From contig CP129477.1 in assembly GCA_030583825.1 (NCBI GenBank), positions 247,252 to 311,251 on the forward strand: DNA of 64,000 nt, read 5' to 3'. This document shows, one piece after another, positions 3,715 to 15,959 of the stretch (its first letter is position 1; every line of letters begins with the position of its first letter). Below the pieces are notes generated by a model that was not told the origin of the DNA, searched no databases, and saw only the letters and a program-made list of their open reading frames with translations. Source of the stretch: Candidatus Dojkabacteria bacterium. Its GTDB lineage: Bacteria > Patescibacteriota > Dojkabacteria > GCA-002793355. A program made the translations under genes and the position numbers.

Positions 3715-4743
3715 TTACTGTGCGAGATATTCTTCAATAATCGTCTGGAATGCTGAAAATGGATATGCACCACCAATGAATTTTCCTTTTACAGTACCGT
3801 CACTCTGGAGTTTTCCAATAACAAATCCTGGTGTTCCAATGCCACCCATTCCGTTTGCCTGCAACCATGCTGCAAGATTCCCCTGCAATTCAGTTACATC
3901 CTGCACGTCTTCTGCAACGACATTTTGTGTTTCTTTATTCTGAGCACATGAGTTTACTCGTCCGACATCAACTCCTGCTTGAGCAATAATTGAGTTCATA
4001 ACGGTAACATCGAAATCAAGACCGCTTGCTCCAGATTTCTGAAGCTTATCAAGCTGTGCAAATACTTGGTCATGGAAAATCTTATACGCAGAAAATCCTC
4101 CAATTTGGCGAACACATTCTGCACGAAGTGCTGTTTCTGTCGCTGCTGGCTCGTGAATAGACAATGGAAGGTTTTTATACACAAATGCGACCTGACCGTT
4201 ATTAATGTAGTTTGTCTGGATTGATTCATATGTTGCCGTTTCGGTCTTTTGGCCAGTCTGTACGTTAATTCCTGTAGCAAACTGTCGGCAGAATACACAC
4301 ATAAAGTCTGTTAATTCAACGATAACGACTTTTGCTTTATTTAAATCTCCCAATACAGCGCGATCTCGAACACGAATAACTGTTTCAGGAAATTGCTCTC
4401 CCGCCAATGCAGGATCTACAGTTCCGGTTCCTACTGCAGTACCTGTTTTTGCTCCCTGTGCTTTTAAGCCAAAGTACAATCCTCCACCGATACCGACGGC
4501 AAGAATCACTGCTGCAACAATAATTGCAACGGGTGTTGTTAAGGCAATTTGTGGAACTTTGATTGTAATATAGTCACCACCTGCTTTTGCCGACTTTGTA
4601 GTCGAAGAAACTGATTCTGCTGAGGCTTCTACAGCTTTTCGCTTTACAGCGGATGTTTCAGTGGCGTTTTTCTTGCTCACTGCGGAATTTTCTGATTCTT
4701 TCACTGACGGAATTGTAAAGTTATATTTTTTGTACTGTACCAA
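3715..4743 (-). CDS. DsbA-like thiol:disulfide oxidoreductase with an N-terminal membrane anchor
   Basis: A thioredoxin-fold CxxC motif (FMCVFCRQF) and one TM helix near residue 70. Confidence 0.7.
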   Translation of the reverse strand: MVQYKKYNFTIPSVKESENSAVSKKNATETSAVKRKAVEASAESVSSTTKSAKAGGDYITIKVPQIALTTPVAIIVAAVILAVGIGGGLYFGLKAQGAKTGTAVGTGTVDPALAGEQFPETVIRVRDRAVLGDLNKAKVVIVELTDFMCVFCRQFATGINVQTGQKTETATYESIQTNYINNGQVAFVYKNLPLSIHEPAATETALRAECVRQIGGFSAYKIFHDQVFAQLDKLQKSGASGLDFDVTVMNSIIAQAGVDVGRVNSCAQNKETQNVVAEDVQDVTELQGNLAAWLQANGMGGIGTPGFVIGKLQSDGTVKGKFIGGAYPFSAFQTIIEEYLAQ

Positions 4744-4850
4744 TCGGAGAGAGTTTTTGTCAAGGAAATATAAGAGTTTGCGCCATTTGTTTGACCTGCG
4801 AGACTAAATATAAAACATTGAATACGAGTGCGTGGACAGTAGTTACCTTA

Positions 4851-4861
4851 TGGGATATAAT
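4851..4861 (+). promoter_or_regulatory. Candidate promoter -10 region (TGGGATATAAT) for the ncRNA candidate
   Basis: TATAAT at 4856-4861, with a putative transcription start about 6-7 nt downstream at the first base of the closing stem. Confidence 0.35.
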
Positions 4862-4866
4862 TTACT

Positions 4867-5059
4867 AGACTCTATAGATTTGCTCTTTCTTTTAATAAGA
4901 AGAGATTACGGTGGCTTTTACTCAGCGACCAGACAAGACGAAAAAAGAATCCAATGCTCTAAGCAAAGATGGCCCTTCCCCCAAACCATCTTCCCCCGGA
5001 TTTCTTTATCGTTGTTTATGTCTGTTGCCGCGCCCACCTCATTTCTATAGAGTCTTTTT
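4867..5059 (+). ncRNA. Candidate structured non-coding RNA of about 193 nt, class unknown. Possibly a 6S-like rod architecture or a C-rich SD-targeting sRNA.
   Basis: A perfect 12-bp terminal inverted repeat, AGACTCTATAGA (4867-4878) and TCTATAGAGTCT (5044-5055), is followed directly by TTTTT. Internal stems are GGTGG/CCACC and AGATGG/CCATCT. The motif CTTCCCCC is duplicated. The element has its own -10 box and lies in a 530-bp gene-free interval. Confidence 0.4.
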
Positions 5060-5194
5060 CCCCTTTATTTTCTTTCTCGAGAAAGAGAAAAATGTAACAG
5101 TTACGCGAGTTTAGTAGCTATTTATTAATGAGTTTTGAAGAGCAAGATCCTTTATTTTTAGCCTGGACAGATACCTCAAGCTATAGGTCAAAAG

Positions 5195-5203
5195 TGGTAT
5201 AAT
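5195..5203 (+). promoter_or_regulatory. Extended -10 promoter TGGTATAAT
   Basis: A TGnTATAAT match, with a consensus SD (GGAGG at 5263-5267) seven nt before the ATG at 5275. Confidence 0.45.
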
Positions 5204-5274
5204 ACACTTAACCTGCAAGGGAGGTTGCACTAAAGGATACGCGGGAAATCCTATAAAAGAAAGGAGGTGATTAA

Positions 5275-5565
5275 ATGACCGACATGAGTGGAGTTGAGCT
5301 GTATCGCAGGAACGGACTCAATAACGTAGAAAACAACTTCAACGTTGACGAAATCTACGAAGCCGCAGTCCAGTCGCGTGAGCCAGATGTTCTTTCTATA
5401 TGGCAAAAGCCTAAAGAAACTGGTCATGGAACTGACACAATTCTCGCTCTCACACCTCTTCTCCATCTACCTGCGAAGCTGAAAGAGCTTTACGCTGCCT
5501 GCGGAAAGCCGCTATATGTTATCGCAGTCGATTCGGAAGAGTTCCCGCCCAACACGTATCCTTAA
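5275..5565 (+). CDS. Hypothetical small protein (96 aa)
   Basis: The best SD in the window (AAAGGAGGTGATTAAATG) and its own extended -10 promoter. No recognisable domain. Confidence 0.5.
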   Translation: MTDMSGVELYRRNGLNNVENNFNVDEIYEAAVQSREPDVLSIWQKPKETGHGTDTILALTPLLHLPAKLKELYAACGKPLYVIAVDSEEFPPNTYP

Positions 5566-5765
5566 ACGATCCCCCTTGCAGGCCTCTTCCCTATTTACCG
5601 TCACTCCTAAACAACCTCCAACTCATTGTGTTTTCTTTTGTTATACGCTACAATACTATTGTTATTATTGTGAAAGCAATATAACACTCGCAGGCAAAGA
5701 TCTGTGCAACTCAAGTTGTATCAGCGCTAGCTAGAGGGTTCTATTTATATTTTGTTCGGTTTGTT

Positions 5766-6023
5766 ATGAATAAATTGTTCGTGGGAAGCTTGCCTTTCCG
5801 AATGACCGATGAAGAGTTACACCAGCTCTTCGCTCAAGTAGGTCCAGTCGTATCTGCAAAAATCATCATTGATCGTGCAACCGGTCGCTCAAAAGGCTTC
5901 GGTTTTGTCGAAATGGAAAATGAATCAGACGTTGCGAAAGCAATTGAACAGCTTAATGGATCAGAAGTTGATGGAAGAACTATCGTTGTAAACGAAGCTC
6001 GACCAGAAGCACCAAGAAGATAA
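5766..6023 (+). CDS. RNA-binding protein with a single RRM domain
   Basis: RNP-2 (LFVGSL) and RNP-1 (KGFGFVEM) motifs. An 85-aa glycine-free short form. Confidence 0.85.
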   Translation: MNKLFVGSLPFRMTDEELHQLFAQVGPVVSAKIIIDRATGRSKGFGFVEMENESDVAKAIEQLNGSEVDGRTIVVNEARPEAPRR

Positions 6024-6044
6024 TCATTTTTTGATTTTTCAAAG

Positions 6045-6079
6045 CAGGCATGTTCTTTCGGGGGCGTGCCTGTTTTTTT
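6045..6079 (+). terminator. Rho-independent terminator downstream of the RRM gene
   Basis: Stem CAGGCATG/CGTGCCTG followed by TTTTTTT. Confidence 0.6.
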
Positions 6080-6166
6080 ATTTCCACACTCTCGGCCAAT
6101 ACACCCATAACGCACAATACCAATCGCAATAAGCAATAATCTGAATTACTAAAACATTGAGAATAG

Positions 6167-6823
6167 TTATGCGTGACCGTTCATTTTGTTCTCAAGGAAC
6201 ATGTTGATCAGGTTTTTGAAAAGGTTCTTTCGATTCAAATACTGGTCAAAAATGATAAAGTCAATATCAGCATTTTGGGCAAACTCTGAATCAACTTCAG
6301 AATCTCCAAAGTAAATAAACTCTTCTTTGGAAGAACCGGACTTCTCTATTAGATCCAGTAAACACTTAGGGTTTGGCTTTTTGTATCCTTCGTCAATGCA
6401 CGAAATTACTGTATCAAAGTATCCAAGAATACCGTTTGCTTCAAGGATCGGGATCATTAATTCTTTGTAACGGTTTGTACAGATATGTAGTTGCTTGCCA
6501 TTTGACTTTAGAAATTCGAAGATATTCACAACTCCTTCGAAAATTTTCATTTTATCAATATTTTCTTTTTGGATTTGCTTGTCTAAGTCTAACAGCTTTT
6601 GTACGTCAAGATCGCGATTAATTTCTTTTAGCGTGGTGCGATACAGGTCTTCAATGATCATTCCGCGGATAGAATCATGAATTTTCACAATGAGGTCAAA
6701 GTTTACATCAGGTGCAAGTTGCGTAATTGCTCGGGCCATAGTTTCGCCACAGAACTGGCGTCCATCCACGAGAGTGTCATCGAGATCGAAGACAAAGTGT
6801 TGTTTAAAAGTTTGTTTTTCCAT
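6167..6823 (-). CDS. HAD-superfamily hydrolase
   Basis: The N-terminal DxD motif (FDLDDTLVDG) and conserved downstream motifs (K...GDSEVD). Confidence 0.7.
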   Translation of the reverse strand: MEKQTFKQHFVFDLDDTLVDGRQFCGETMARAITQLAPDVNFDLIVKIHDSIRGMIIEDLYRTTLKEINRDLDVQKLLDLDKQIQKENIDKMKIFEGVVNIFEFLKSNGKQLHICTNRYKELMIPILEANGILGYFDTVISCIDEGYKKPNPKCLLDLIEKSGSSKEEFIYFGDSEVDSEFAQNADIDFIIFDQYLNRKNLFKNLINMFLENKMNGHA

Positions 6824-6943
6824 ACCGCGCTAATTATACCACTTGTAGAATTGCCATTGGTAGGCGATGTTTGAATCGGCTAACTTATCTCTATTCAGAG
6901 AAAATGATACGCACAGGAAACAGTACCGGAACAACCTGAAGTA

Positions 6944-6952
6944 TGGTAAAAT
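6944..6952 (+). promoter_or_regulatory. Extended -10 promoter TGGTAAAAT for the tRNA-His gene
   Basis: A TGn(-10) element 9 nt upstream of the tRNA 5' end. Confidence 0.4.
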
Positions 6953-6960
6953 TCGGATGT

Positions 6961-7033
6961 GGTGGCTGTAGCTCAGGGGTAGAGCACCTGTCTGTGGAAC
7001 AGGATGTCGTGGGTTCGAAACCCATCAGCCACC
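6961..7033 (+). tRNA. tRNA-His (anticodon GTG) with a genome-encoded G-1
   Basis: Cloverleaf folded by hand. Acceptor GTGGCTG/CAGCCAC, with an extra 5' G pairing discriminator C73. D stem GCTC/GAGC. Anticodon stem CCTGT/ACAGG with loop CTGTGGA (U33, anticodon GUG). T arm GTGGG-TTCGAAA-CCCAT. CCA is not fully encoded. Confidence 0.85.
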
Positions 7034-7386
7034 CATTTTGGGATTTTTAGACAACAAAATTGTCATTTCTTCTTTACTGGTCGGTATTTTCTGAGGTTCT
7101 AAGGTTTGTATAGCCTTCTCAAATTTAGGTTTTGCTTTCTTAATTATTTCAAGCGGTTTATCAACTTCTATTTGAATTTGTAAATCCTTAATAACAATAT
7201 TTGCTCCAAGTTGTAACAGTATCTCATTCTTAATAGGTAAATCTCCCTTTTCAAATCTGTCTTTAGCTTCTTTTGCAAACTTAAATGACTTCTTAGCTTT
7301 CTCAGTCCATTCTGAATCGTCAGCTTCTTACTAACTTTATCCAATTTGTCTTTTTGTTGTTCAGCTTTAACCTTCTTAACACTCAT
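7025..7386 (-). pseudogene. Frameshifted small gene relic. A Lys/Glu-rich helical protein of about 125 aa if one frameshift is repaired.
   Basis: The ATG frame (MSVKKVKAEQQKDKLDKVSKKL) continues in another frame (ADDSEWTEKAKKSFKFAKEAKDRFEKGDLPIKNEILLQLGANIVIKDLQIQIEVDKPLEIIKK...) that has no start of its own. The stop codon lies inside the tRNA-His 3' end. Confidence 0.35.
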
Positions 7387-7411
7387 ATTTATACTTATAT
7401 ATTTTTTACAA

Positions 7412-10400
7412 TTATTGTGATTTTTCTATAATTGCTATCTCCTCGGGTGTTAGTTCATAAATCTTATAAACTCTTTGGTCAATTTGCTTACCTAAATTAC
7501 TAATTTGACTCTGTAAATTCCTCAATTCATTCTGTTTTGACTTAAACCAATTGAAAAGTTCTTCTGTCTTATCAAGTGTCATTTTTATTTTCTTTTGTTC
7601 TATAATCTCAACCAATTCATTCCAACCCATATCAATCAATTCACCTTTGATGGAAAACTTCCCATCAAAATGTAAATAGTTATTAAGAAACGATAATGAT
7701 TGAATATTTAACCCCTCATACAGCTCAATAGCTTTTTCTATTTGTTTATAAAGTAATGCTAAGTCTTGCTGTATATCTTTTGTAGGAATATTTATAGGTA
7801 TCTTTGAAAGGTTAACACTTTTGACCTCTGGGAAGACTCTTCCTTTTTCAGGAACTAAAAATCTATAAACAAAACCTATCAAGGTTGAATTTAATATTGT
7901 GGCTAATGATTCTAGGCTGATGCCTTCAGTTTTTAGGGTTAAATTATAAACATTGTTTAAGTTTAATCTACCTTGTACATCTACGGCACAAATAATCCTA
8001 TCCGCTGTTTGTCTAATTACTATCTTTTTCTGAGAGAAATCAAGGGAATTTCTCGGTTCAGCAAGCCATTCACCATAAGCAAGCCATCTACTGGAATCAG
8101 ATATGAAAAACTGCTTAATATCTCCGCCAATTATATACTTTTGGTAAGAGTCATCTTTTTTATCAATCCCATCGTAAATTCTCTTTCTTACAATGTCCTC
8201 ATCTTGAGCTGGTTTACCTTTTCCTTTCTGGTAGGGTTTTATTCCTACTGTTGGCTTTGCGACTTCATCTAATCTAACTGCTTTTGAAAAAATTTTATCA
8301 ATTATCTTTATTGAATTTTCATCATAGTCTAGATTAAACCCATTTGATATATTTTTCCTCCATGTATCCGAATTAGCTATACTTCTTTCTTGATTTATAA
8401 ATGATTCTAATTGTTTAATACTTCTAGTCTGTATTTCATAATGTTTTATAACTGATGACTTTTGACATACAAGAATTGATGTTTCTGCTGTTACTTCTTG
8501 AAATGCTTGATATTTTAGTAACTCAACTATAATAAGCTTGTTTTCAAGTAGAAGTTGTCGGATTTTTTCAAAATAGTGCATTGCAAGCCATGTTGAGGGA
8601 ACTATGAAACCAATGTATCCATTCTCCTTCACTAACATTAGTGACTTCTCAATGAATGCTATGTATGTTTCAAATTGATACTCTGTATGTTTATAATTCT
8701 CAGATATATACTTCTTCTCATTTGGTTTTAATTCAGCTCCCCATGGAGGGTTTCCAATAATTACATCAAACCCGCCGTCCTGCATAATATCCTTAAATTC
8801 AGCATTCCAGTTGAAAGCCTTGTTACCAGCAATTTCAGGGTCATCAATTAGTGAGTTACCACACTTAATATTCTTATCTAAATTCTGCAAAGGCTCACTG
8901 CTTCTAGCTGTCTTTAACCATAGTGCTAACTTAGTTATTTCAACACTTTCTTGATTCAGGTCAACACCGTATAGATTATTCAAAAGAATAGATTTATTGT
9001 TTTCAGCAGGGTTATAGTCAAAGAGGGTTTGTGACTCTCCTTTTGCCTGTTTCTCCGCAATTAAAGCGTCATACCTTGCTTTATACTCGTTTCTAAGAAA
9101 TGAATGGGCTTGATTTAAGAAAGCACCGCTACCACAAGCAGGGTCAAGTATCTTAATTGTGCTTAATTTGTCAGGGTATTCTTCTAAATATTTGCCTACA
9201 GTATTTTCTACAATGTATCGGGTTATGTATTCAGGAGTGTAGAATATCCCATCCTTTTTTCTTCTACCTTTCTTTTCAACTGATTTATCTACAGTTCCAA
9301 TAACAACTTTATCTCCTGATTCTGTAAGCAAGTTCCCACCTTGTTCAAGCTCAAGATGGATATTCTCTTTAATAGTCTCTAAATCGCTAATACTTTGCTC
9401 AAAAATATGACCTAAAATGTTTACATTCAAATCGGTTTCAAAGTCATACTCTGCAAGGTGCATTAAATGACTCCAAAAATCATCTTTAATTGATAGATTA
9501 TCCAGTAAATCATCAAAGGCAAATAACCCTCCATTGTAAGCATTTATAGGCGGTTTAACTCTGTTGTTTCCTTTATCAATTGCAATGAATAAACCCTTAA
9601 ATTCAGTCCATACTCTTTCGTCACTTGGAGAAAGTGAATTGATGGCTCTATCGTAGGTATTCTTAACGATATTTAGGGGGAGTAACGAGCTTGTATCTTC
9701 ACAAAACAAAGTGAATATAAATCTATCAAGTAACTTCTGGGTTTTCTCAAGTAATAATACTTTGTTTACAGTTGGGTTGTTTTGAGATAAATGATTAAGC
9801 AATCCCAAACGAACCTCTTTATATTCAGAATAGAACTTTTTAGTGATGTCTTGTTCTGCCTCAGTCGTGTCTTTGGCTAAAACATCAATAATGCTTTCCT
9901 TCTCTTTAGATATAAGGTTTTCTTGTGAGAGTAGGAAATAAAATCTTTTTAGTTCGTTTTCTTGAATTAAATCAATAACATCAAATTTTTCATAATACTC
10001 TTGAGTTTTATGCTTGTTATAAAGTCTAATCTCTTTGAAATTTGAAACTATAATCCAATTACAACCATCGTATTTAGTAGCGTATAAATAAGCCTGTTCA
10101 ATTGGTGTTAGCTTCTCAGAACCTCTATTTTGCCTTTTATCAAGCTGAGTTTTTGCATCTTTTAACTCAATTACCGCTTTAGTTAATTTTGTTTCTTTAC
10201 TAAACCAACCTAAGCTACCATCAGGCTCTTTACTATCGTTTTCAATTCTAGGGTGCTGTATGAGGGTCCATTCTTCATTCCCTGTGGTTACATCGCTATA
10301 ACCTAAAATAGCCTCAAAAAAGGTGCTTAAAAACTTCCCTTGCACACTTTTTTCCTTTGTCTTTTCAAGGTCACTATCTTTAAGGGCTTTTTGCCAACCT

Positions 10401-10495
10401 TCAAGAAGTTTCTTTGCAATTTCTAGCCTTTCAGCGTTAGGAAACTCAAAAGAGTGCATCTTTTGCTGTAGTAGCTTTTTGTTTATTAAATTCAT
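7412..10495 (-). CDS. Type IIG restriction-modification enzyme (MmeI/Eco57I-like): a fused PD-(D/E)xK endonuclease, gamma-class N6-adenine methyltransferase and target-recognition domain.
   Basis: The N-terminal nuclease motif EPDGSLGW...IELKDAK. MTase motif I (ILDPACGSGAFL) and motif IV (IIGNPPWG). A C-terminal TaqI-like specificity region. 1027 aa. Confidence 0.75.
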   Translation of the reverse strand: MNLINKKLLQQKMHSFEFPNAERLEIAKKLLEGWQKALKDSDLEKTKEKSVQGKFLSTFFEAILGYSDVTTGNEEWTLIQHPRIENDSKEPDGSLGWFSKETKLTKAVIELKDAKTQLDKRQNRGSEKLTPIEQAYLYATKYDGCNWIIVSNFKEIRLYNKHKTQEYYEKFDVIDLIQENELKRFYFLLSQENLISKEKESIIDVLAKDTTEAEQDITKKFYSEYKEVRLGLLNHLSQNNPTVNKVLLLEKTQKLLDRFIFTLFCEDTSSLLPLNIVKNTYDRAINSLSPSDERVWTEFKGLFIAIDKGNNRVKPPINAYNGGLFAFDDLLDNLSIKDDFWSHLMHLAEYDFETDLNVNILGHIFEQSISDLETIKENIHLELEQGGNLLTESGDKVVIGTVDKSVEKKGRRKKDGIFYTPEYITRYIVENTVGKYLEEYPDKLSTIKILDPACGSGAFLNQAHSFLRNEYKARYDALIAEKQAKGESQTLFDYNPAENNKSILLNNLYGVDLNQESVEITKLALWLKTARSSEPLQNLDKNIKCGNSLIDDPEIAGNKAFNWNAEFKDIMQDGGFDVIIGNPPWGAELKPNEKKYISENYKHTEYQFETYIAFIEKSLMLVKENGYIGFIVPSTWLAMHYFEKIRQLLLENKLIIVELLKYQAFQEVTAETSILVCQKSSVIKHYEIQTRSIKQLESFINQERSIANSDTWRKNISNGFNLDYDENSIKIIDKIFSKAVRLDEVAKPTVGIKPYQKGKGKPAQDEDIVRKRIYDGIDKKDDSYQKYIIGGDIKQFFISDSSRWLAYGEWLAEPRNSLDFSQKKIVIRQTADRIICAVDVQGRLNLNNVYNLTLKTEGISLESLATILNSTLIGFVYRFLVPEKGRVFPEVKSVNLSKIPINIPTKDIQQDLALLYKQIEKAIELYEGLNIQSLSFLNNYLHFDGKFSIKGELIDMGWNELVEIIEQKKIKMTLDKTEELFNWFKSKQNELRNLQSQISNLGKQIDQRVYKIYELTPEEIAIIEKSQ

Positions 10496-10517
10496 GTTCT
10501 AATCCTTATATTTATTG

Positions 10518-12269
10518 TTAAATACTCTCAAAGTAATTCCTTATACTTTGTGATAATAGCTTTTTTCTTTGAGTTAAAAATTCTGAATAGTTTAACTCGT
10601 AAAACTTATACGGTAGGGCATGATTCTTTAATACAGTTTCTAAATCAGTCCTACTGTATTGTTCAAATTCCTTAAAGTAATCCATTGGTGAGTTATCAGA
10701 AATTACAATGTTTGTTTTGTAGTCAAGATAAAGATAGTTCGCTACTTGATTCTGTTCTGTCTGTTCAACAATACCGATACCATTCAAATAATTCTTTGGG
10801 AATATATGGTGTTTATCCAAGCGAGCTTTCTTAACTGTAATTACAGGGTCAAACAGGTCTGATATTTTCTTAGTAGAAAATAGTAGGTCGACATTATTTC
10901 TAATCTGTGAAGCTATAAATACCAGCCATTGAGGATTCTTTGAATAAGATGATGTCAGCAATGCAGGCATCGTAATTTCCCAAAAGTCATTTGTTATTTC
11001 TGATTGTATTCTGCTATCCAATAGAGAAATAAACTCATCACCATTTTTTGCGTTTCTAATTAAAGCTAAATCGCTTTCAAAGTAGCTTTCTGATGAACCT
11101 GAATATCTTGATTTTAATGCTGACATTAAAAACCATCTTGAAACTATTCTTTCAAGCTTATGAAATTCAATATTAAACCTGTATTTGCCAATTAAGTAGA
11201 AGGCGTAAGAATAGAAGAAATTTGTTCTTGAGGTAATTAAATCACTATGCTTAAACCCTAACGACTGAATAAGATTTATATAATCGTGCCAAGTAGTATT
11301 ATCAAGTCCATTGGAGACATACTCTTCAAGCTCATTAAATCGCTTTTGTTTTAGTTCTTCAATAAATTCTCTTGTTTCAAAATCTCTACCTCGTAGAAGC
11401 GAGTAAACATCGCTCATTCTACCTCTGTTAAAACCATATCCAACTATAGCTCTAAGTATTTCTCCTGGTTTAACATCAATGAGATGATTAAATGATGAGT
11501 ACTGTAAACCCTGAGAATTTGGATTATTGCTTTGCATTGAGAAGTCCTCAATCTTCTTGCGTCCACTTTCCCAAAATACAGATAATAGGGTCAAAACAAA
11601 ATCAGATTGTTTTAGTACAACTCCTTTGCTGTTCACCCGAACAAAGATACTAGCAACCGTTTCTTCATCAACATTTTCTGCTATCTCTAAAATCGTAAAA
11701 TCATAAGACAGAATTGACCTTAAATGTGTAATGTTTTGAGAGATTATTTCTTCTTGTTCTTGTGTAGTGTCCTTATTAGCTTTTAACCTTTGAATAAACT
11801 CATTTATAAAGCGATACTCGCTAAAATCATTTTGAAACAAAAGGCTAATATCTGTAATGTATTCAACATCTCTATCAGTTGCGACATTGGAAACTTCAAA
11901 CTTCTCTAATAATGGATTAAAAGCTATTTTAATACGCTTTTCTTTATAATTTGCATCAATAATCGGAATCCCTTTTATTGTGGCAAATAGAGCGGTAAGT
12001 CTTTGTTGACCATCAATAATCAAGCTTTTTGCGTTACTTTCCTTTTTATCAGTGCCAATATCTTTTCTGTTATTGTCATTCACGTTCTCCCAAAAGAGAA
12101 GATAACCAACGGGATAACCTCTATAGATTGAGTCAAACAAATCTCTAACCTTGGTTGTATCCCACACGAAAGGACGTTGAATATCAGGTAAGGCTATCTT
12201 ACCGTGGTCAATATCGTTTATCAGTGTTTGAATCGGATATTGCGTAGTCTTAAAAATTGTTTTACTCAT
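10518..12269 (-). CDS. GmrSD-family type IV (modification-dependent) restriction endonuclease-like protein with DUF262 and DUF1524 domains
   Basis: DUF262 motifs (IQRPFVWD, IIDGQQRLTALF) and the DUF1524 His-Me finger (DKHHIFPKNYL). It lies 22 bp upstream of the type IIG gene on the same strand. Confidence 0.75.
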   Translation of the reverse strand: MSKTIFKTTQYPIQTLINDIDHGKIALPDIQRPFVWDTTKVRDLFDSIYRGYPVGYLLFWENVNDNNRKDIGTDKKESNAKSLIIDGQQRLTALFATIKGIPIIDANYKEKRIKIAFNPLLEKFEVSNVATDRDVEYITDISLLFQNDFSEYRFINEFIQRLKANKDTTQEQEEIISQNITHLRSILSYDFTILEIAENVDEETVASIFVRVNSKGVVLKQSDFVLTLLSVFWESGRKKIEDFSMQSNNPNSQGLQYSSFNHLIDVKPGEILRAIVGYGFNRGRMSDVYSLLRGRDFETREFIEELKQKRFNELEEYVSNGLDNTTWHDYINLIQSLGFKHSDLITSRTNFFYSYAFYLIGKYRFNIEFHKLERIVSRWFLMSALKSRYSGSSESYFESDLALIRNAKNGDEFISLLDSRIQSEITNDFWEITMPALLTSSYSKNPQWLVFIASQIRNNVDLLFSTKKISDLFDPVITVKKARLDKHHIFPKNYLNGIGIVEQTEQNQVANYLYLDYKTNIVISDNSPMDYFKEFEQYSRTDLETVLKNHALPYKFYELNYSEFLTQRKKLLSQSIRNYFESI

Positions 12270-12303
12270 AGTGTCTTATACTTATTTTGGTTCTAATTAG
12301 TTA

Positions 12304-12477
12304 CTATACCTTTGATTTTTCAATCAAAGCTTCAATATCTGATTTTTTAATCATATATTTTTTCCCAACTCTAAAGGCTTTAAGCTTTCCCTGTTTAATC
12401 CAACGGTAAATAGTCATATAAACGACTTTCAGCATTTCCGCCACTTCCTCAATTGTGTAGTATTTTTCTTCTTCCAT
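12304..12477 (-). CDS. Excisionase/AlpA-family helix-turn-helix DNA-binding protein (57 aa). Not in the ORF track.
   Basis: Manual translation gives MEEEKYYTIEEVAEMLKVVYMTIYRWIKQGKLKAFRVGKKYMIKKSDIEALIEKSKV. The pattern is the classic Xis/MerR-superfamily HTH. It lies 34 bp upstream of the DUF262 gene on the same strand. Confidence 0.65.
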   Translation of the reverse strand: MEEEKYYTIEEVAEMLKVVYMTIYRWIKQGKLKAFRVGKKYMIKKSDIEALIEKSKV

Positions 12478-12562
12478 TATTTATATTGTTTTGATTTGTT
12501 TAACATTATTTTACTTTTCAAGTATAATTCATTGTAAATAAAAATTAAAGATAAGTATAAAT

Positions 12563-13369
12563 ATGAGAAAAATATCTGAATTTATAACTAGTCCACTGGT
12601 GTTCAAAATCCTCATTGTATTAGTAATTATCCTAGCAGTAATAGCCTCTATATTCATTTATGAAAATCCAATTCATCCCTTAACTAGTCTGCTCAATTCA
12701 AACTATTTTGTCGCTTTAGTAACTGGTATTGCTGGAGCTGTAGCATTTTTAATATATTTTAAGCAGAAAGCTGACACTAAGCGTGATGCGGCTAAAACTA
12801 TCCTTGCTGAAATTACTAATTCAGAAAAAACAATCCAAGAAGTTAAGAATATTAAGAAGTTCTCAGGATATATGAATTTAGACCCTGACCCTTTGAAGTT
12901 TTACTTAGGCAATTTTAGCTGGAATCAGTATAAGTACCTTTTTATTGGAGATTTTGATTCGTACGAGTGGGAAAAGATAAACCAATATTTCTCACAGTGT
13001 GGTACTTTCAATGAAGCCATCAAAAATATTGCTAATTTATTGCCACAAAACATTGAATATAGGATGCAATTTCTTCAACAAGAACTAGCCAAAATAGCAA
13101 GTGAACAAGCAGATGAGGTAGCAAAACTTGAGAAACCTGATGGCAAAAATGATAAAACAAGACAAGAAAAAATCAAAGAGATAAGTGAAAAGTATGAGCA
13201 AAAGGGTAAGGATTTTGTTTTTGGATATATAGAAGCAGAAAAGACATCTCTAAAGTATGTGTATACACCTGCCAATGCATATGAACCATTGAATAGGGAA
13301 CTTGATAAAATTGATACTGAAATTAGTAAATCAAGTATTGGGAAAAAACTAGTTAAATTAGCTCGCTAG
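12563..13369 (+). CDS. Membrane protein with two N-terminal TM helices and a C-terminal coiled-coil domain. Unknown function.
   Basis: TM1 near residues 12-33 and TM2 near 49-67, followed by a charged helical region (QFLQQELAKIASEQADEVAKLEK...). It is transcribed divergently from the HTH-GmrSD-IIG operon and has its own TATAAT box. Confidence 0.5.
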   Translation: MRKISEFITSPLVFKILIVLVIILAVIASIFIYENPIHPLTSLLNSNYFVALVTGIAGAVAFLIYFKQKADTKRDAAKTILAEITNSEKTIQEVKNIKKFSGYMNLDPDPLKFYLGNFSWNQYKYLFIGDFDSYEWEKINQYFSQCGTFNEAIKNIANLLPQNIEYRMQFLQQELAKIASEQADEVAKLEKPDGKNDKTRQEKIKEISEKYEQKGKDFVFGYIEAEKTSLKYVYTPANAYEPLNRELDKIDTEISKSSIGKKLVKLAR

Positions 13370-13425
13370 ATTAAGGTAGTGGGTCATCATTGCGTTTCTA
13401 ATTTCACGCCACAATCCACCCCAAT

Positions 13426-13804
13426 TTAGTCTTTCTGCCGATTGAATATACTATCAAAGGGTTTCATTAGGGAATATTGGAGCATTCCATCTCTCAAAAA
13501 GAGGTTCTGACGTGTCAGTTTTATAATCTCTCTTTTTTCATCATGTTCAGAACCTAGAAAAAGCTCATACGAACGTGAAGCGAGCTCTAATAGCGTAGAT
13601 GCCGTTATATAATAGTCTTCATCTGCTTGCTCTAAGCGAGAAAGCTTATCTCTAAAATCCTGTTGTTCTGCTCTATATTTTTTATTAAATTTGTCATATT
13701 CTTCCTGAGTAATCCCCTATAAAACGTGCAAGTTCATGCCCACTGGCTTCAGTTTTTTCAACTATATAATCAAGAATTTTTCCAGATGTCTTTTCAATAG
13801 CCAT
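13426..13804 (-). pseudogene. Frameshifted gene relic. It encodes an HTH-like N-terminus plus a coiled-coil domain, about 125 aa if repaired.
   Basis: Frame 1 reads MAIEKTSGKILDYIVEKTEASGHELARFIGDYSGRI*. The continuation in another frame reads TQEEYDKFNKKYRAEQQDFRDKLSRLEQADEDYYITASTLLELASRSYELFLGSEHDEKREIIKLTRQNLFLRDGMLQYSLMKPFD. A single indel is implied. Confidence 0.35.
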
Positions 13805-13963
13805 AAGTAATTGTAGCAAATAAAGTTCCTAGTTAATTAGGAACCATACGGTGAATTCATTTTTTATTAAGATAGTATTAGTTCTTTGCATTTCTTAAAA
13901 ATTTTATTTAATATTCTTAACACATACAAAAAATAATTAACCTCAAACGCATTACTTCATTAA

Positions 13964-14308
13964 ATGAAAGACTACTCAAAATATCTGAATAATAAATCTC
14001 CAGACGTTGCTTATATTTTGAATGAGCTTTTTGTAATTCTTGATAAGATTACAGCTAAAGACTACGAAGTAGAGGAAAAGCAAACCTCGCTGCATATCGT
14101 AAAAAGCTCTGCTTTTCTCGGTGTTCATTTTCTCAAAGACAAACTACGATTAAATATAGTGCTTAACCACGTAGCTACCTCGGATAAATTGCATAAATCT
14201 GAGCAGGTCTCTAAAAACCGATTTCATAACGAAATTGACTTGAGAACAGTCAAAGATTTATCTGATATAGAGATGCTCATTAAAGAAGCATATTTTCTAA
14301 AGACTTAG
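13964..14308 (+). CDS. Hypothetical protein (114 aa). Faint resemblance to a DUF5655-type small domain.
   Basis: ORF with normal composition. The family assignment is from memory only and weak. Confidence 0.4.
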   Translation: MKDYSKYLNNKSPDVAYILNELFVILDKITAKDYEVEEKQTSLHIVKSSAFLGVHFLKDKLRLNIVLNHVATSDKLHKSEQVSKNRFHNEIDLRTVKDLSDIEMLIKEAYFLKT

Positions 14309-14399
14309 ACAGATGTTTTCAAGTTTATTCATGTTTATTTTTAGCTCTATTCTTCGGTTCAGGAACTGGTCTAATAAGTGACCCCATACAAAGATTTCA

Positions 14400-15959
14400 T
14401 CACTTTTCAACAACCCTCACAACCTCAAACACTGCCTGATCTCCCTGCATCACCACCTCTTCTTCAGAATACGTATAACCGTACTTTTCTAACGACCTCA
14501 AAACCCTCATCGCAGTAGAATTAGGGTTTGCCCGTGAGGCACTATGAAAAACAAAAACCATTCCCTCTTCGGTCAAATAATGCGCTTGAATATACGCATC
14601 AAACTCCTCATCGGAAAGATGATCAATTGTCCAGAATTCTTCGGAATATTTATGCGGCGTATAGTCAAAAATAATTAATTGATTATATATTCCCCAATCG
14701 AGGACATTAACTCGCTCGGACGAAGACTTAGTAAATGTGGCAAGCGTATCTATTGCCGGAGCCCAAATAAAGAGTTTCGGATTATTAAAATGATACAGCG
14801 TAGAAGCAGAGAGTACGCTCCACACTATCCCCAGTGAAACCAAGCTTAGCACTACTCCTTGCCAGGATATCTTCATCACGCGTACAAAAAGTAAAGAAAG
14901 GGAAAAATTCCAGAATACCAAAAGCTGTGCCGTATGCCACGTCGCTATTGCCTGCGTCGTGATAATAATTTGGGCAAACACAAGCAGTAATATCAACCCC
15001 ACAGAAAATAAAATGCCGGGATGCTTTATATGCTGCATCACACGTCGAAGATTGAGCTTTTCATTTTGGCGAAGCAGTATACTAAAAAGCGGTGCAAGAA
15101 GGATTCCTAAAATAAGCACATCTACCCAGAATGGAATATCGAGAAAATGAAACCGTATAAAGCCTGTTCCCGTAATCGTCGTAATGGCATTTTGCACTTT
15201 TAAACCAATCGTTGATACGACAGCAGCAAGCGAATATGTGTTTGAAACATGAAATTTGAGAGATACAAATATAAACAGAAGGTATGGCATAGAGAAGGAG
15301 ACAAAAAACGCGCCAAGTTGACCAAATTTCTTCTCTTTTAAAAAGCTAAGAAAGTTTCTCCAACTCGAAAGGAATATCACTGCAACAAAAGCATTTGCAA
15401 TCCAAATAAAGTTTAGCTTGTTATATGTACCGATCGCCAAAAAGATTGGAAGCACGAGCAGATACATCAACTTTTGCGTTTTTGTATACAGAATAAATAG
15501 TCCAAGAACAATTTGGGTGATAACAAATTCAATAACGCTTGGGCCAATATCTAAGCGACTCTGAAATATGATCGCAGGGTTCAATAGTGACAGGAACAGA
15601 TATACAAATGCGCTCTGCTTGTCATATTGCCTATAGAGAAACCAAGAGAATACCACAACGGAGCTTACTGCCAGTATAACCATTGGAATTCTAATAGTCT
15701 CGTAGCTCACTCCCAGCAAAAAGAATATCGGCATATAGAGCAAGGATTTTAATCCACCGATATATGCCATCAGAAAAAGTGTAATCCTTCCAATTTTGGA
15801 AGCTACAAAGCCGTCTAAGTAACCTCCTCGAGCTGCGTTAACAAATAAGACTTCGTCGTAATGAAAGCCTGGAGTTGAAATATTGAAAAGTGCAAAAAAG
15901 AGAAAAATAGCAACAATAATTAGCGGCATCAGCAGCCACACGGCAGGTTTAAACTTCAT
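14400..15959 (-). CDS. Polytopic membrane protein, probable GT-C fold glycosyltransferase (ArnT/PMT-like)
   Basis: At least 10 TM helices. An acidic first-loop motif (FHYDEVLFVNAARG) typical of GT-C enzymes. A C-terminal soluble domain. Confidence 0.45.
   Translation of the reverse strand: MKFKPAVWLLMPLIIVAIFLFFALFNISTPGFHYDEVLFVNAARGGYLDGFVASKIGRITLFLMAYIGGLKSLLYMPIFFLLGVSYETIRIPMVILAVSSVVVFSWFLYRQYDKQSAFVYLFLSLLNPAIIFQSRLDIGPSVIEFVITQIVLGLFILYTKTQKLMYLLVLPIFLAIGTYNKLNFIWIANAFVAVIFLSSWRNFLSFLKEKKFGQLGAFFVSFSMPYLLFIFVSLKFHVSNTYSLAAVVSTIGLKVQNAITTITGTGFIRFHFLDIPFWVDVLILGILLAPLFSILLRQNEKLNLRRVMQHIKHPGILFSVGLILLLVFAQIIITTQAIATWHTAQLLVFWNFSLSLLFVRVMKISWQGVVLSLVSLGIVWSVLSASTLYHFNNPKLFIWAPAIDTLATFTKSSSERVNVLDWGIYNQLIIFDYTPHKYSEEFWTIDHLSDEEFDAYIQAHYLTEEGMVFVFHSASRANPNSTAMRVLRSLEKYGYTYSEEEVVMQGDQAVFEVVRVVEK

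Follow-up and report, generated by a model that had tools for sequence, protein, structure and literature searches.

A defence island at tRNA-His of a Dojkabacteria genome, probably assembled by serine-recombinase integrations, and its operon of HTH_17, BrxU-like and type IIG genes

Nucleases of the GmrSD family and DNA-methylating defence systems have repeatedly been described within one and the same locus. One report states the co-directional embedding of GmrSD-like genes in methylation-based systems as a general rule (bioRxiv 10.1101/2024.01.29.577857). Nested GmrSD-like genes are reported for TgvAB, which belongs to a type I restriction-modification (R-M) operon of VPI-2 in Vibrio cholerae, and for RloF of Campylobacter type I R-M, and the same source proposes that these proteins target modified phages and complement R-M (PMC11411939). 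HEC-05 and HEC-06 occur in Hma and type I R-M systems, type I and type IV systems cluster in the enteric immigration control region, and both BrxU and HEC-05 are reported to act independently of their host systems (PMC11411939; bioRxiv 10.1101/2024.01.29.577857; PMC12707154). The focus of this article is a locus of this kind in the window, by which we mean the whole 64-kb stretch of DNA that was analysed (contig CP129477.1 of a Candidatus Dojkabacteria genome of about 1.09 Mb), namely a three-gene operon beside tRNA-His which encodes a small helix-turn-helix (HTH) protein of 57 amino acids (aa), a DUF262 protein and a type IIG R-M enzyme.

We assign a probability of roughly 0.7 to the explanation that this is a defence island which arose by at least two serine-recombinase integrations at tRNA-His, and whose operon encodes two independent, complementary nucleases together with a small regulator. 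An earlier reading of the window, made from its sequence alone and referred to below as the sequence-only reading, regarded a transcription unit shared by a type IV-like nuclease and a modification-generating type IIG enzyme as undescribed; this is contradicted by the published cases of BrxU in BREX, TgvAB in type I R-M, and HEC-05/06. A GmrSD-like type IV gene in a methylation-based defence operon is an established theme and not a new one.

The low-GC island at tRNA-His and its recombinase remnants

The features on which the argument depends are the following, with loci fetched from other contigs designated by handles that begin with L:

6962-7034, + strand: tRNA-His (GTG), the putative integration target (ARAGORN; Rfam tRNA, 67.2 bits)
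7031-7386, - strand: left relic, a frame-broken 3' stump (about 119 codons) assigned to a large serine recombinase gene (HMMER homologues)
7412-10495, - strand: MmeI-like type IIG gene, 1027 aa (Pfam; PADLOC REase_MTase_IIG)
10518-12269, - strand: DUF262 BrxU-like gene, 583 aa (Pfam GmrSD_N; PADLOC HEC-05)
12304-12477, - strand: HTH_17 gene, 57 aa, the operon's first gene (Pfam; TIGR01764)
12478-12562, no strand: divergent intergenic region, 85 bp, AT-rich, between the HTH gene and a 268-aa gene
13409-13423, + strand: vestige of a tRNA-His 3' end, about 15 nt, CCACAATCCACCCCA (positional homology with L093 and L094)
13429-13819, - strand: right relic, a frame-broken 3' stump assigned to a second large serine recombinase gene (homologues; alignment)

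Read along the window, the order is tRNA-His, left stump, the operon (type IIG, DUF262 and HTH genes) with the 268-aa gene, tRNA vestige, right stump, a DUF5655 gene and finally the core chromosome. Directly past tRNA-His, the guanine-plus-cytosine (GC) content drops from about 40% to 30-34% and does not recover until about position 14350, which gives a low-GC segment of 7.3 kb on the 3' side of the tRNA gene. Positions 7035-14350 have a GC content of 32.1% compared with 39.6% in the rest of the window, and the minimum among 423 stretches of the same size outside the island is 36.6% (mean 39.4, standard deviation 1.3), so that the island lies 5.4 standard deviations below stretches of its size elsewhere in the window. 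At third codon positions, GC is 26-35% in the island genes as against 32-40% in neighbouring genes. The tRNA-His(GTG) gene is the sole tRNA gene that ARAGORN finds in the window, and an Rfam scan of 6800-14500 at E <= 1 returned nothing beyond this tRNA.

Scans of the two relics against Pfam, NCBIfam and PHROGs gave no matches, and their identity emerged only through exhaustive searching and database homologues. The left relic overlaps the 3' end of tRNA-His in antisense, reading into it. Its in-frame part of 97 aa has 369 matches in an exhaustive HMMER search, and the full-length proteins among them (540-664 aa), which carry Resolvase, Recombinase and Zn_ribbon_recom domains, align at their extreme C-terminus (residues ~435-560); with the C-terminus of the L015 recombinase, identity is 29% over 73 aa. 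The right relic is 72% identical to an open reading frame (ORF) of L085 (3340-3660) and 27% identical to the left relic over 81 aa. Its part 13429-13716 has 16 database homologues (P0241-P0256), all of 90-161 aa and none a full-length recombinase; some of them have an upstream 'EKAYDDKLDGSITQDEY' segment, which we take to be typical of large serine recombinases, and some have antisense-tRNA tails such as 'WGGRQDLNPQPPVPQTGAL'. Judged from these homologies, both relics are the 3' ends of large serine recombinase genes. Only such C-terminal stumps are left in the window, and no recombinase catalytic domain.

Several homologues of the right relic start at nearly the same place, the 'ITQ(D/E)EY' position or a few residues from it, and in P0251 the N-terminus of a DPPY methyltransferase is fused in frame to the stump at this point. 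Either a recurrent breakpoint or the joint effect of decay and gene calling may explain the shared start.

Between the two stumps lies the tRNA vestige. At its position, L093 and L094 have an intact tRNA-His that the homologous stump enters or overlaps, and in a multiple alignment the window and L085 retain just the first ~15-17 nt of that tRNA-His before they diverge. A direct comparison of the tRNA-His 3' end with the right edge is not significant alone (score 25; shuffles 17.3 ± 3.3, maximum 33), and the island holds no significant long direct repeat. By positional homology, we regard 13409-13423 as the displaced junction of a younger and an older element; position 13430 is the border between two stacked elements and not the end of the low-GC tract. 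The stumps and the vestige together argue for two successive integrations at one tRNA gene, with each element later losing the catalytic part of its recombinase. The younger element (~7021-13423) would carry the three-gene operon, and the island would have become fixed in place once both recombinase genes were reduced to C-terminal stumps.

Targeting of tRNA genes is more typical of tyrosine integrases. Intact serine-recombinase counterparts are present in two loci of the Candidate Phyla Radiation (CPR), where the recombinase ORF runs antisense through the whole tRNA gene and the tRNA sequence encodes the C-terminal tail of the recombinase: in L007, tRNA-Ser (7569-7659) lies inside an intact 576-aa serine recombinase ORF (7426-9156), and in L015, tRNA-Gln (4362-4434) lies inside the 3' end of an intact 538-aa recombinase ORF (4356-5972). 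This position of the tRNA implies that the recombinase gene has the attachment site at its 3' end. The whole island has an intact analogue in L007, with tRNA-Ser, serine recombinase, a 189-aa gene, an XRE HTH gene, DUF262, HsdM, HsdS and HsdR, and L015 is similar.

At tRNA-His itself, L086 shares 77.5% DNA identity with window positions 6980-7201, across the junction of tRNA and left stump, and carries a different cargo. L093 has a C5 methyltransferase, an HpaII-type endonuclease and Vsr (5880-8255) beside a stump (9001-9411) and tRNA-His (9328-9402). Because L086 and L093 hold different cargo there, tRNA-His appears from these sequences to be a recurrent landing site for defence and R-M cargo in these bacteria. 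Relatives of the cargo on other contigs reach 92-94% aa identity, as compared with 69% for the nearest relative of the flanking HAD gene.

The sequence-only reading had placed a low-GC segment at the 3' end of tRNA-His, which the composition bears out. The boundaries that it gave were 7025-13430, but the low-GC tract continues to about 14350. What it had called two frameshifted gene relics at the edges are indeed frame-broken ORFs, which can now be recognized as serine-recombinase 3' stumps; its statement that no integrase is present is right for an intact integrase and overlooks these two stumps. Its notion of a decayed integrative element that kept its cargo is in good agreement with the recombinase stumps, the tRNA vestige and the intact analogue L007.

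The operon, its predicted proteins and a proposed mechanism

The operon consists of three minus-strand ORFs, as the sequence-only reading had described it, with gaps of 34 bp between the HTH_17 and DUF262 genes and of 22 bp between the DUF262 and type IIG genes; a promoter and terminator scan placed no terminator between them. The 85-bp region presumably holds the promoters of both divergent genes. A promoter-like site on the + strand was found within it (12500-12528, score 11/12), and in the same scan no minus-strand site for the operon passed and promoter-like sites were fewer than in shuffles.

The 583-aa product of the middle gene matches GmrSD_N/DUF262 with E 4.6e-32 (112 bits, Pfam cutoff 33), and GmrSD_C/DUF1524 with 14.9 bits (E 0.025), which lies below the Pfam cutoff of 23. 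Its predicted domains are a DUF262 domain of NTPase type at the N-terminus and a His-Me finger (HHIFP..NQ.AN..N) at the C-terminus, with a helical linker between them. Across 14 aligned homologues (44-100% identity), which come from several bacterial phyla, D86-G-Q-Q-R90 and R42-D-L-F-D-S47 are invariant, as is the C-terminal series H487-H488-x-F-P491, N507-Q-x-A-N511 and N520; R-L-F-D-S is the BrxU-type nucleotide-binding motif (bioRxiv 10.1101/2024.01.29.577857). The best matches among defence databases are the PADLOC HEC-05 models (PDLC04151, 3.4e-40; PDLC04150, aligned over residues 12-578 of 583). A profile of the DUF262 family matches BrxU (7P9K) with 1.1e-17 and shows weak segments, in collinear order, in the middle and the C-terminal part. 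In agreement with this, an AlphaFold2 model of the protein (pLDDT 82.8, pTM 0.78) has BrxU 7P9K as its top Foldseek match over the full length (E 1.6e-13, probability 1.0), although with a TM-score of only 0.36, and the C-terminal nuclease domain of SspE as its second. The family is large, with at least 7959 proteins at E <= 1e-10 among 8000 candidates.

On the basis of the model and the motifs, the 583-aa protein is a BrxU-like member of the GmrSD family with a predicted nuclease. The DUF262 part of the earlier DUF262/DUF1524 assignment is confirmed, and the C-terminal nuclease is supported, despite the sub-threshold DUF1524 match, by the invariant HH..N..N motif and the likeness of its fold to BrxU.

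In L082 (5223-8335), an orthologue with 80% identity lies convergent with two C5 DNA methyltransferase genes and a gene for an MTaX1-HNH protein. BrxU cuts 5-methylcytosine (5mC) DNA; if the present DUF262 clade did the same, L082 would face a self-targeting conflict, and by this analogy the arrangement hints at a narrower substrate range of the clade. A second, shorter GmrSD_N-HNH protein (387 aa) adjoins an EcoRI-type methylase in L088 (1478-3910), on a contig that also holds a stand-alone orthologue of the 583-aa protein.

The 1027-aa protein was recognized as MmeI-like type IIG in the sequence-only reading as well, and the profiles agree: it matches MmeI_N (34.8 bits, cutoff 27), MmeI_Mtase (56.7), Eco57I (142.8), N6_Mtase (81) and TaqI_C (66.6) in Pfam, and REase_MTase_IIG in PADLOC with 1.9e-106, while MmeI_hel remains slightly below its cutoff (25.4 against 27). 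The methyltransferase motifs I (DPACGSGAF) and IV (NPPW, within GNPPWG) can be read intact in the translation. The architecture begins with an MmeI-like nuclease at the N-terminus and continues through a helical spacer into a gamma-class N6-adenine methyltransferase; this is followed by a TaqI-like domain for target recognition and, at the C-terminus, by a coiled coil. Candidate nuclease residues, D92 and E110-x-K112, are identical in the L081 orthologue; a PDB sequence search with residues 1-373 returned no match at E <= 10. MmeI_TRD and MmeI_C have no Pfam match in this protein, and TaqI_C occupies that region, so the domain matches describe an MmeI-like nuclease and methyltransferase combined with a different, TaqI-type recognition module. 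The L081 orthologue (5656-8682) is 69% identical overall, with 80-98% in most nuclease and methyltransferase parts and 30-64% over residues ~650-950, the recognition region, which suggests that the two enzymes differ in specificity.

Identity with PglX of BREX or MAD2 of MADS was considered for this protein and rejected, since it scores 107 against a cutoff of 500 for PglX and 56 against 720 for MAD2 (NCBIfam). The ORF list of the island contains no other BREX or MADS genes.

The 57-aa product of the first gene belongs to HTH_17 (Pfam E 2.5e-19) and reaches 62.5 bits with TIGR01764, the 'excisionase family' (cutoff 28.8), as the earlier designation of an excisionase-family HTH implied; it matches PHROG excisionase families at ~1e-9 to 1e-12, and MAD1 with 44 bits, under the cutoff of 80. 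It is not an XRE-type HTH_3 protein of the kind found in the C proteins of R-M systems.

From these family assignments, the following mode of action can be proposed. The HTH_17 protein would bind the 85-bp region upstream of its gene and control transcription. In the BrxU-like enzyme, the ParB-like DUF262 domain would use nucleoside triphosphate (NTP) to gate the C-terminal His-Me nuclease, and this type IV enzyme would cut DNA with modified cytosines. The type IIG enzyme would place a methyl group on adenine within its own site, and would cut foreign DNA that lacks this mark at a fixed distance. The two nucleases would act independently of each other, the type IIG enzyme stopping unmodified DNA and the type IV enzyme stopping phages that escape through cytosine hypermodification. 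The host's own mark, N6-methyladenine, would not be a type IV substrate because it is not a cytosine modification, which would make the two nucleases compatible. Their linkage would reflect shared regulation and shared mobility, with an HTH-DUF262 leader module placed before interchangeable R-M systems.

Several points weigh against this explanation. Neither the promoter scan nor the comparison of four upstream regions identified a promoter or operator for the HTH protein. The substrate range of BrxU cannot be read across to a DUF262 clade that is only 17% identical to it, the DUF1524 match is below the Pfam threshold, and the type IIG nuclease residues are candidates named from the sequence. 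The tRNA vestige is short and its assignment depends on positional homology. Furthermore, the search for an empty tRNA-His site in a related genome was without success: the flanking HAD gene, used in a metagenome scan, yielded two loci, neither of them syntenic, and the contigs of the nearest HAD relative (69%, protein search) were not syntenic either. The comparison of the same tRNA-His in relatives, which the sequence-only reading had proposed, revealed the differing cargo of L086 and L093, but in the absence of an empty site the insertion boundaries could not be set in that way. Finally, L085 and L086 share the same stumps, and the island may be old in its lineage and not a recent acquisition.

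Two further genes lie in the low-GC tract:

12563-13369, + strand: divergent gene for a 268-aa protein (ORF translation)
13964-14308, + strand: DUF5655 gene, 114 aa (Pfam DUF5655, 5.1e-09)

The translation of the 268-aa gene begins with two hydrophobic segments followed by a charged helical C-terminal part, in line with the divergent two-transmembrane, coiled-coil protein described earlier. Library scans yielded only sub-threshold family matches for it, a tblastn search against all fetched loci gave no match, and the gene is not conserved beside the module. The DUF5655 gene has a GC content of 33.3% and is probably cargo of the older element; its protein is without homologues in the fetched loci. 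The operon is flanked by a perfect inverted repeat of 17 nt (ATAAGTATAAATATGAG; 7382-7398 and 12551-12567), which takes in the start codons of the left stump ORF and the 268-aa gene. As a cassette boundary it was rejected, because repeats of at least 17 nt occur in 8.5% of Markov shuffles, and it is probably due to chance. On the other side of tRNA-His, the HAD hydrolase (6167-6823, 218 aa) is without the N-terminal XRE-type HTH domain that most of its homologues (~290 aa; Dojkabacteria, Shapirobacteria, WWE3) do have.

Related loci and the competing explanations

The gene neighbourhoods of nine close relatives, with DUF262 identities of 72-94%, are given here:

L085, 94%: HTH_17 leader; contig ends after DUF262
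L081, 92%: XRE-type leader; MmeI-like type IIG gene follows
L001, 84%: no HTH leader; contig ends
L086, 82%: HTH_17 leader; N6_Mtase/Eco57I/Type_ISP_C (ISP-like type IIG) enzyme, then Fic; at tRNA-His with a stump
L083 and L084, 80%: no HTH leader; HsdM, DUF2321, HsdS, a 211-aa gene, HsdR
L082, 80%: no HTH leader; convergent with two C5 methyltransferases and the MTaX1-HNH protein
L087, 77%: HTH_17 leader; HsdR/HsdM/HsdS; tyrosine integrase ~9 kb downstream
L088, 72%: no HTH leader; no methyltransferase adjacent; defence-rich region

A distant set comprises 80 genome loci from bacteria and archaea, whose DUF262 orthologues are 39-47% identical, plus one with 84%. Its three largest neighbour families are HsdR, HsdS and HsdM, typically in the order hsdM-hsdS-DUF262-hsdR. 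By profile searches, a type I component lies within 8 kb in 32 of the 80 loci; for the 39 loci whose sequence extends at least 4 kb to either side, the number is 19. Elsewhere, the DUF262 gene is located between type III mod and res (L003), beside a type ISP enzyme (L028), beside a DISARM-like DEAD/MZB helicase (L043) or beside an SNF2 helicase (L034).

These neighbourhoods bear on the proposal that the three genes form one coupled system, in which the DUF262 protein would depend on, sense or regulate type IIG methylation as an effector or licensing factor, and which would then represent a new type of defence. The tight operon with its 34- and 22-bp gaps and no terminator between genes agrees with such a coupling, as do the R-M system that lies directly downstream in the same orientation in five of the seven close relatives with resolved downstream sequence, the methyltransferase-containing systems that recur near distant orthologues, and the recurrence of a leader HTH in CPR versions. 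However, the type of the partner varies freely between MmeI-like IIG, ISP-like IIG, type I, type III and DISARM-like systems, while DUF262 stays 40-47% identical across phyla and gives no sign of co-evolution with its partners. Moreover, the DUF262 gene of L088 has no methyltransferase gene directly adjacent, more than half of the 80 distant loci lack a type I component within 8 kb, and the homologues BrxU/HEC-05 and HEC-06 are reported to be protective alone (bioRxiv 10.1101/2024.01.29.577857). That the DUF262 sequence is kept while the R-M partner changes type argues for co-location and co-regulation rather than mechanistic coupling, and we consider a coupled system unlikely. Across the nine close and 80 distant loci, the triad of HTH, DUF262 and type IIG genes is, as far as these sequences tell, not a fixed conserved unit, and the conserved synteny for which the sequence-only reading suggested searching was not found; the coupled module that it envisaged is disfavoured.

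A different question concerns the 57-aa protein, which might be the excisionase (recombination directionality factor) of the element and thus a leftover of the mobile backbone, as its TIGR01764 and PHROG scores would allow. However, the HTH_17 gene keeps a distance of 2-34 bp from the DUF262 gene, on its upstream side, in elements whose recombinases differ, namely with a serine stump in the window and in L086, and with a tyrosine integrase ~9 kb away in L087. Orthologues in L085, L086 and L087 immediately precede the DUF262 gene, and their linkage is to this gene and not to any one type of recombinase. In L081, DNA homology to the window (81.6%) ends exactly at the DUF262 start codon, which implies that the HTH gene has been swapped, and an XRE-type HTH occupies the HTH_17 position there as well as in L007 and L015. 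HTH_17 domains are likewise encoded at the start of MADS operons, and they match the N-terminal part of PADLOC models for type II methyltransferases. An excisionase is therefore a doubtful identification. Because its gene tracks the DUF262 gene across serine and tyrosine elements, and because an XRE HTH can substitute there, the 57-aa HTH is most likely, on this comparative evidence, a transcriptional controller of the operon and not an excisionase. A comparison by eye of four HTH_17 upstream regions revealed no shared operator motif.

The two halves of this leader can also be viewed as a unit. A small HTH leader is present in five of the nine close relatives; HTH_17 leaders were found only in the Dojkabacteria-related clade among the close and distant loci, and XRE leaders in three of 24 small upstream ORFs of distant loci, the two confirmed cases being the CPR loci L007 and L015. 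It is conceivable, if improbable, that the HTH and BrxU-like genes are a conserved CPR 'leader' cassette that is functionally wired to whichever R-M system follows. In such a cassette, the HTH may set the timing of expression after transfer, with methylation occurring ahead of the two nucleases, or the DUF262 NTPase may sense the methylation state of the partner; it would then constitute a new class of R-M accessory or controller module and not an independent type IV enzyme.

L087 (10274-12039) and the 48-kb contig of P0010 share a backbone that consists of DUF5659, two genes of ~65 and ~157 aa and a tyrosine integrase, and that follows two different DUF262-containing defence cargos. The shared backbone points to a second element family, with a tyrosine integrase, that carries the same module.

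Less probable is the view that the DUF262 protein is no nuclease at all and regulates the downstream R-M genes through NTP-dependent DNA binding, in the manner of DndB or ParB. This could account for the finding that the N-terminal DUF262 alone reaches its Pfam threshold, GmrSD_C staying at 14.9 against 23, and for the ParB, KorB and Noc folds among the weak Foldseek matches. It is at odds with the invariance of H487, H488, N507, N511 and N520 in the 14 homologues, with the extent of the PADLOC HEC-05 model (residues 12-578), and with a Foldseek ranking led by full-length BrxU (1.6e-13) and then the SspE nuclease domain.

The idea that the region is native, slowly evolving AT-rich chromosome with three genes adjacent by chance can be set aside as the least credible, for although no empty site turned up in the HAD-gene scans, L085 and L086 share flanking stumps so that the locus may be inherited in the lineage, and the repeat resembling an attachment site is not significant alone, the GC content 5.4 standard deviations below that of same-size stretches, the two serine-recombinase stumps with the tRNA vestige, a cargo 92-94% identical to genes of other contigs when the flanking core gene reaches 69% with its best relative, and the different cargo at the same tRNA-His in L086 and L093 all oppose it.

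Significance and comparison with known systems

If the explanation by serine-recombinase integrations and two independent nucleases is correct, an ultra-small CPR genome has acquired and kept a layered immunity at the DNA level, in which one transcription unit pairs an enzyme predicted to act against unmodified DNA with one predicted to act against hypermodified DNA. In close relatives, the HTH-DUF262 leader would be subject to module swapping, as it precedes at least three R-M types, and tRNA-His would be a serine-recombinase hotspot at which elements stack and then lose their integrases. The type IIG enzyme of the window and its diverged L081 orthologue are candidates for new recognition specificities. 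Current concepts remain unchanged, because each of these points extends a published theme.

The closest described counterpart of the 583-aa protein is BrxU (7P9K) of the BREX locus on plasmid pEFER, which is similar in size (587 aa), has the same domain order, shares the motifs DGQQR, R(D)LFDS and a C-terminal (D/K)H-x-x-P His-Me motif, and is both the best sequence-profile and the best fold match. In addition, its gene lies co-directionally within a defence locus based on a methyltransferase. The two proteins differ in sequence, with 17% identity in the structural alignment, and in their partners, which are a six-gene BREX system for BrxU and a single-polypeptide type IIG enzyme here. The leader here is a 57-aa HTH_17 protein, and the pEFER BREX locus uses a WYL-type BrxR. 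TgvAB and RloF find a parallel in the orthologue loci, ~40% of which show either the order hsdM-hsdS-DUF262-hsdR or type I genes no more than 8 kb away; TgvAB differs in that it comprises two proteins, one with DUF262 only and one with DUF262 and DUF1524, as opposed to one fused protein, and in that the window's partner is type IIG. The HEC-05 survey deals with multi-gene host systems, and the sections consulted do not mention a GmrSD-like gene that leads a single-gene type IIG system with a small HTH.

With the MmeI family, the 1027-aa protein has in common MmeI_N, the helical spacer, the gamma-class MmeI_Mtase/Eco57I core with motifs I and IV, and a fast-diverging recognition region; it departs from it by a TaqI_C recognition domain in place of the MmeI TRD and C-terminal models. 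A small HTH gene heading a restriction-enzyme operon is likewise known from the C proteins of R-M systems, to which the XRE-type leaders of L081, L007 and L015 correspond, whereas the window has HTH_17 and not HTH_3, and no C-box-like operator was found in the four upstream regions. The similarity of the 57-aa HTH to MAD1 of MADS is weak, and the MAD1 and MAD2 scores are far under the NCBIfam cutoffs.

Regarding mobility, the stumps are homologous to the C-terminal end of the Resolvase, Recombinase and Zn_ribbon proteins of large-serine-recombinase tRNA elements (Ccr/XisF-like), and intact versions of these overlap the tRNA in antisense (L007, L015), as the left stump does. Unlike such elements, the window has neither a catalytic domain nor a significant long direct repeat. 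As in tandem accretion at tRNA hotspots, a displaced 3' fragment of the tRNA lies between stacked elements here too. What is specific to the present locus is the combination of a single-polypeptide type IIG partner, an HTH_17 leader, a CPR host and serine-recombinase scars at tRNA-His.

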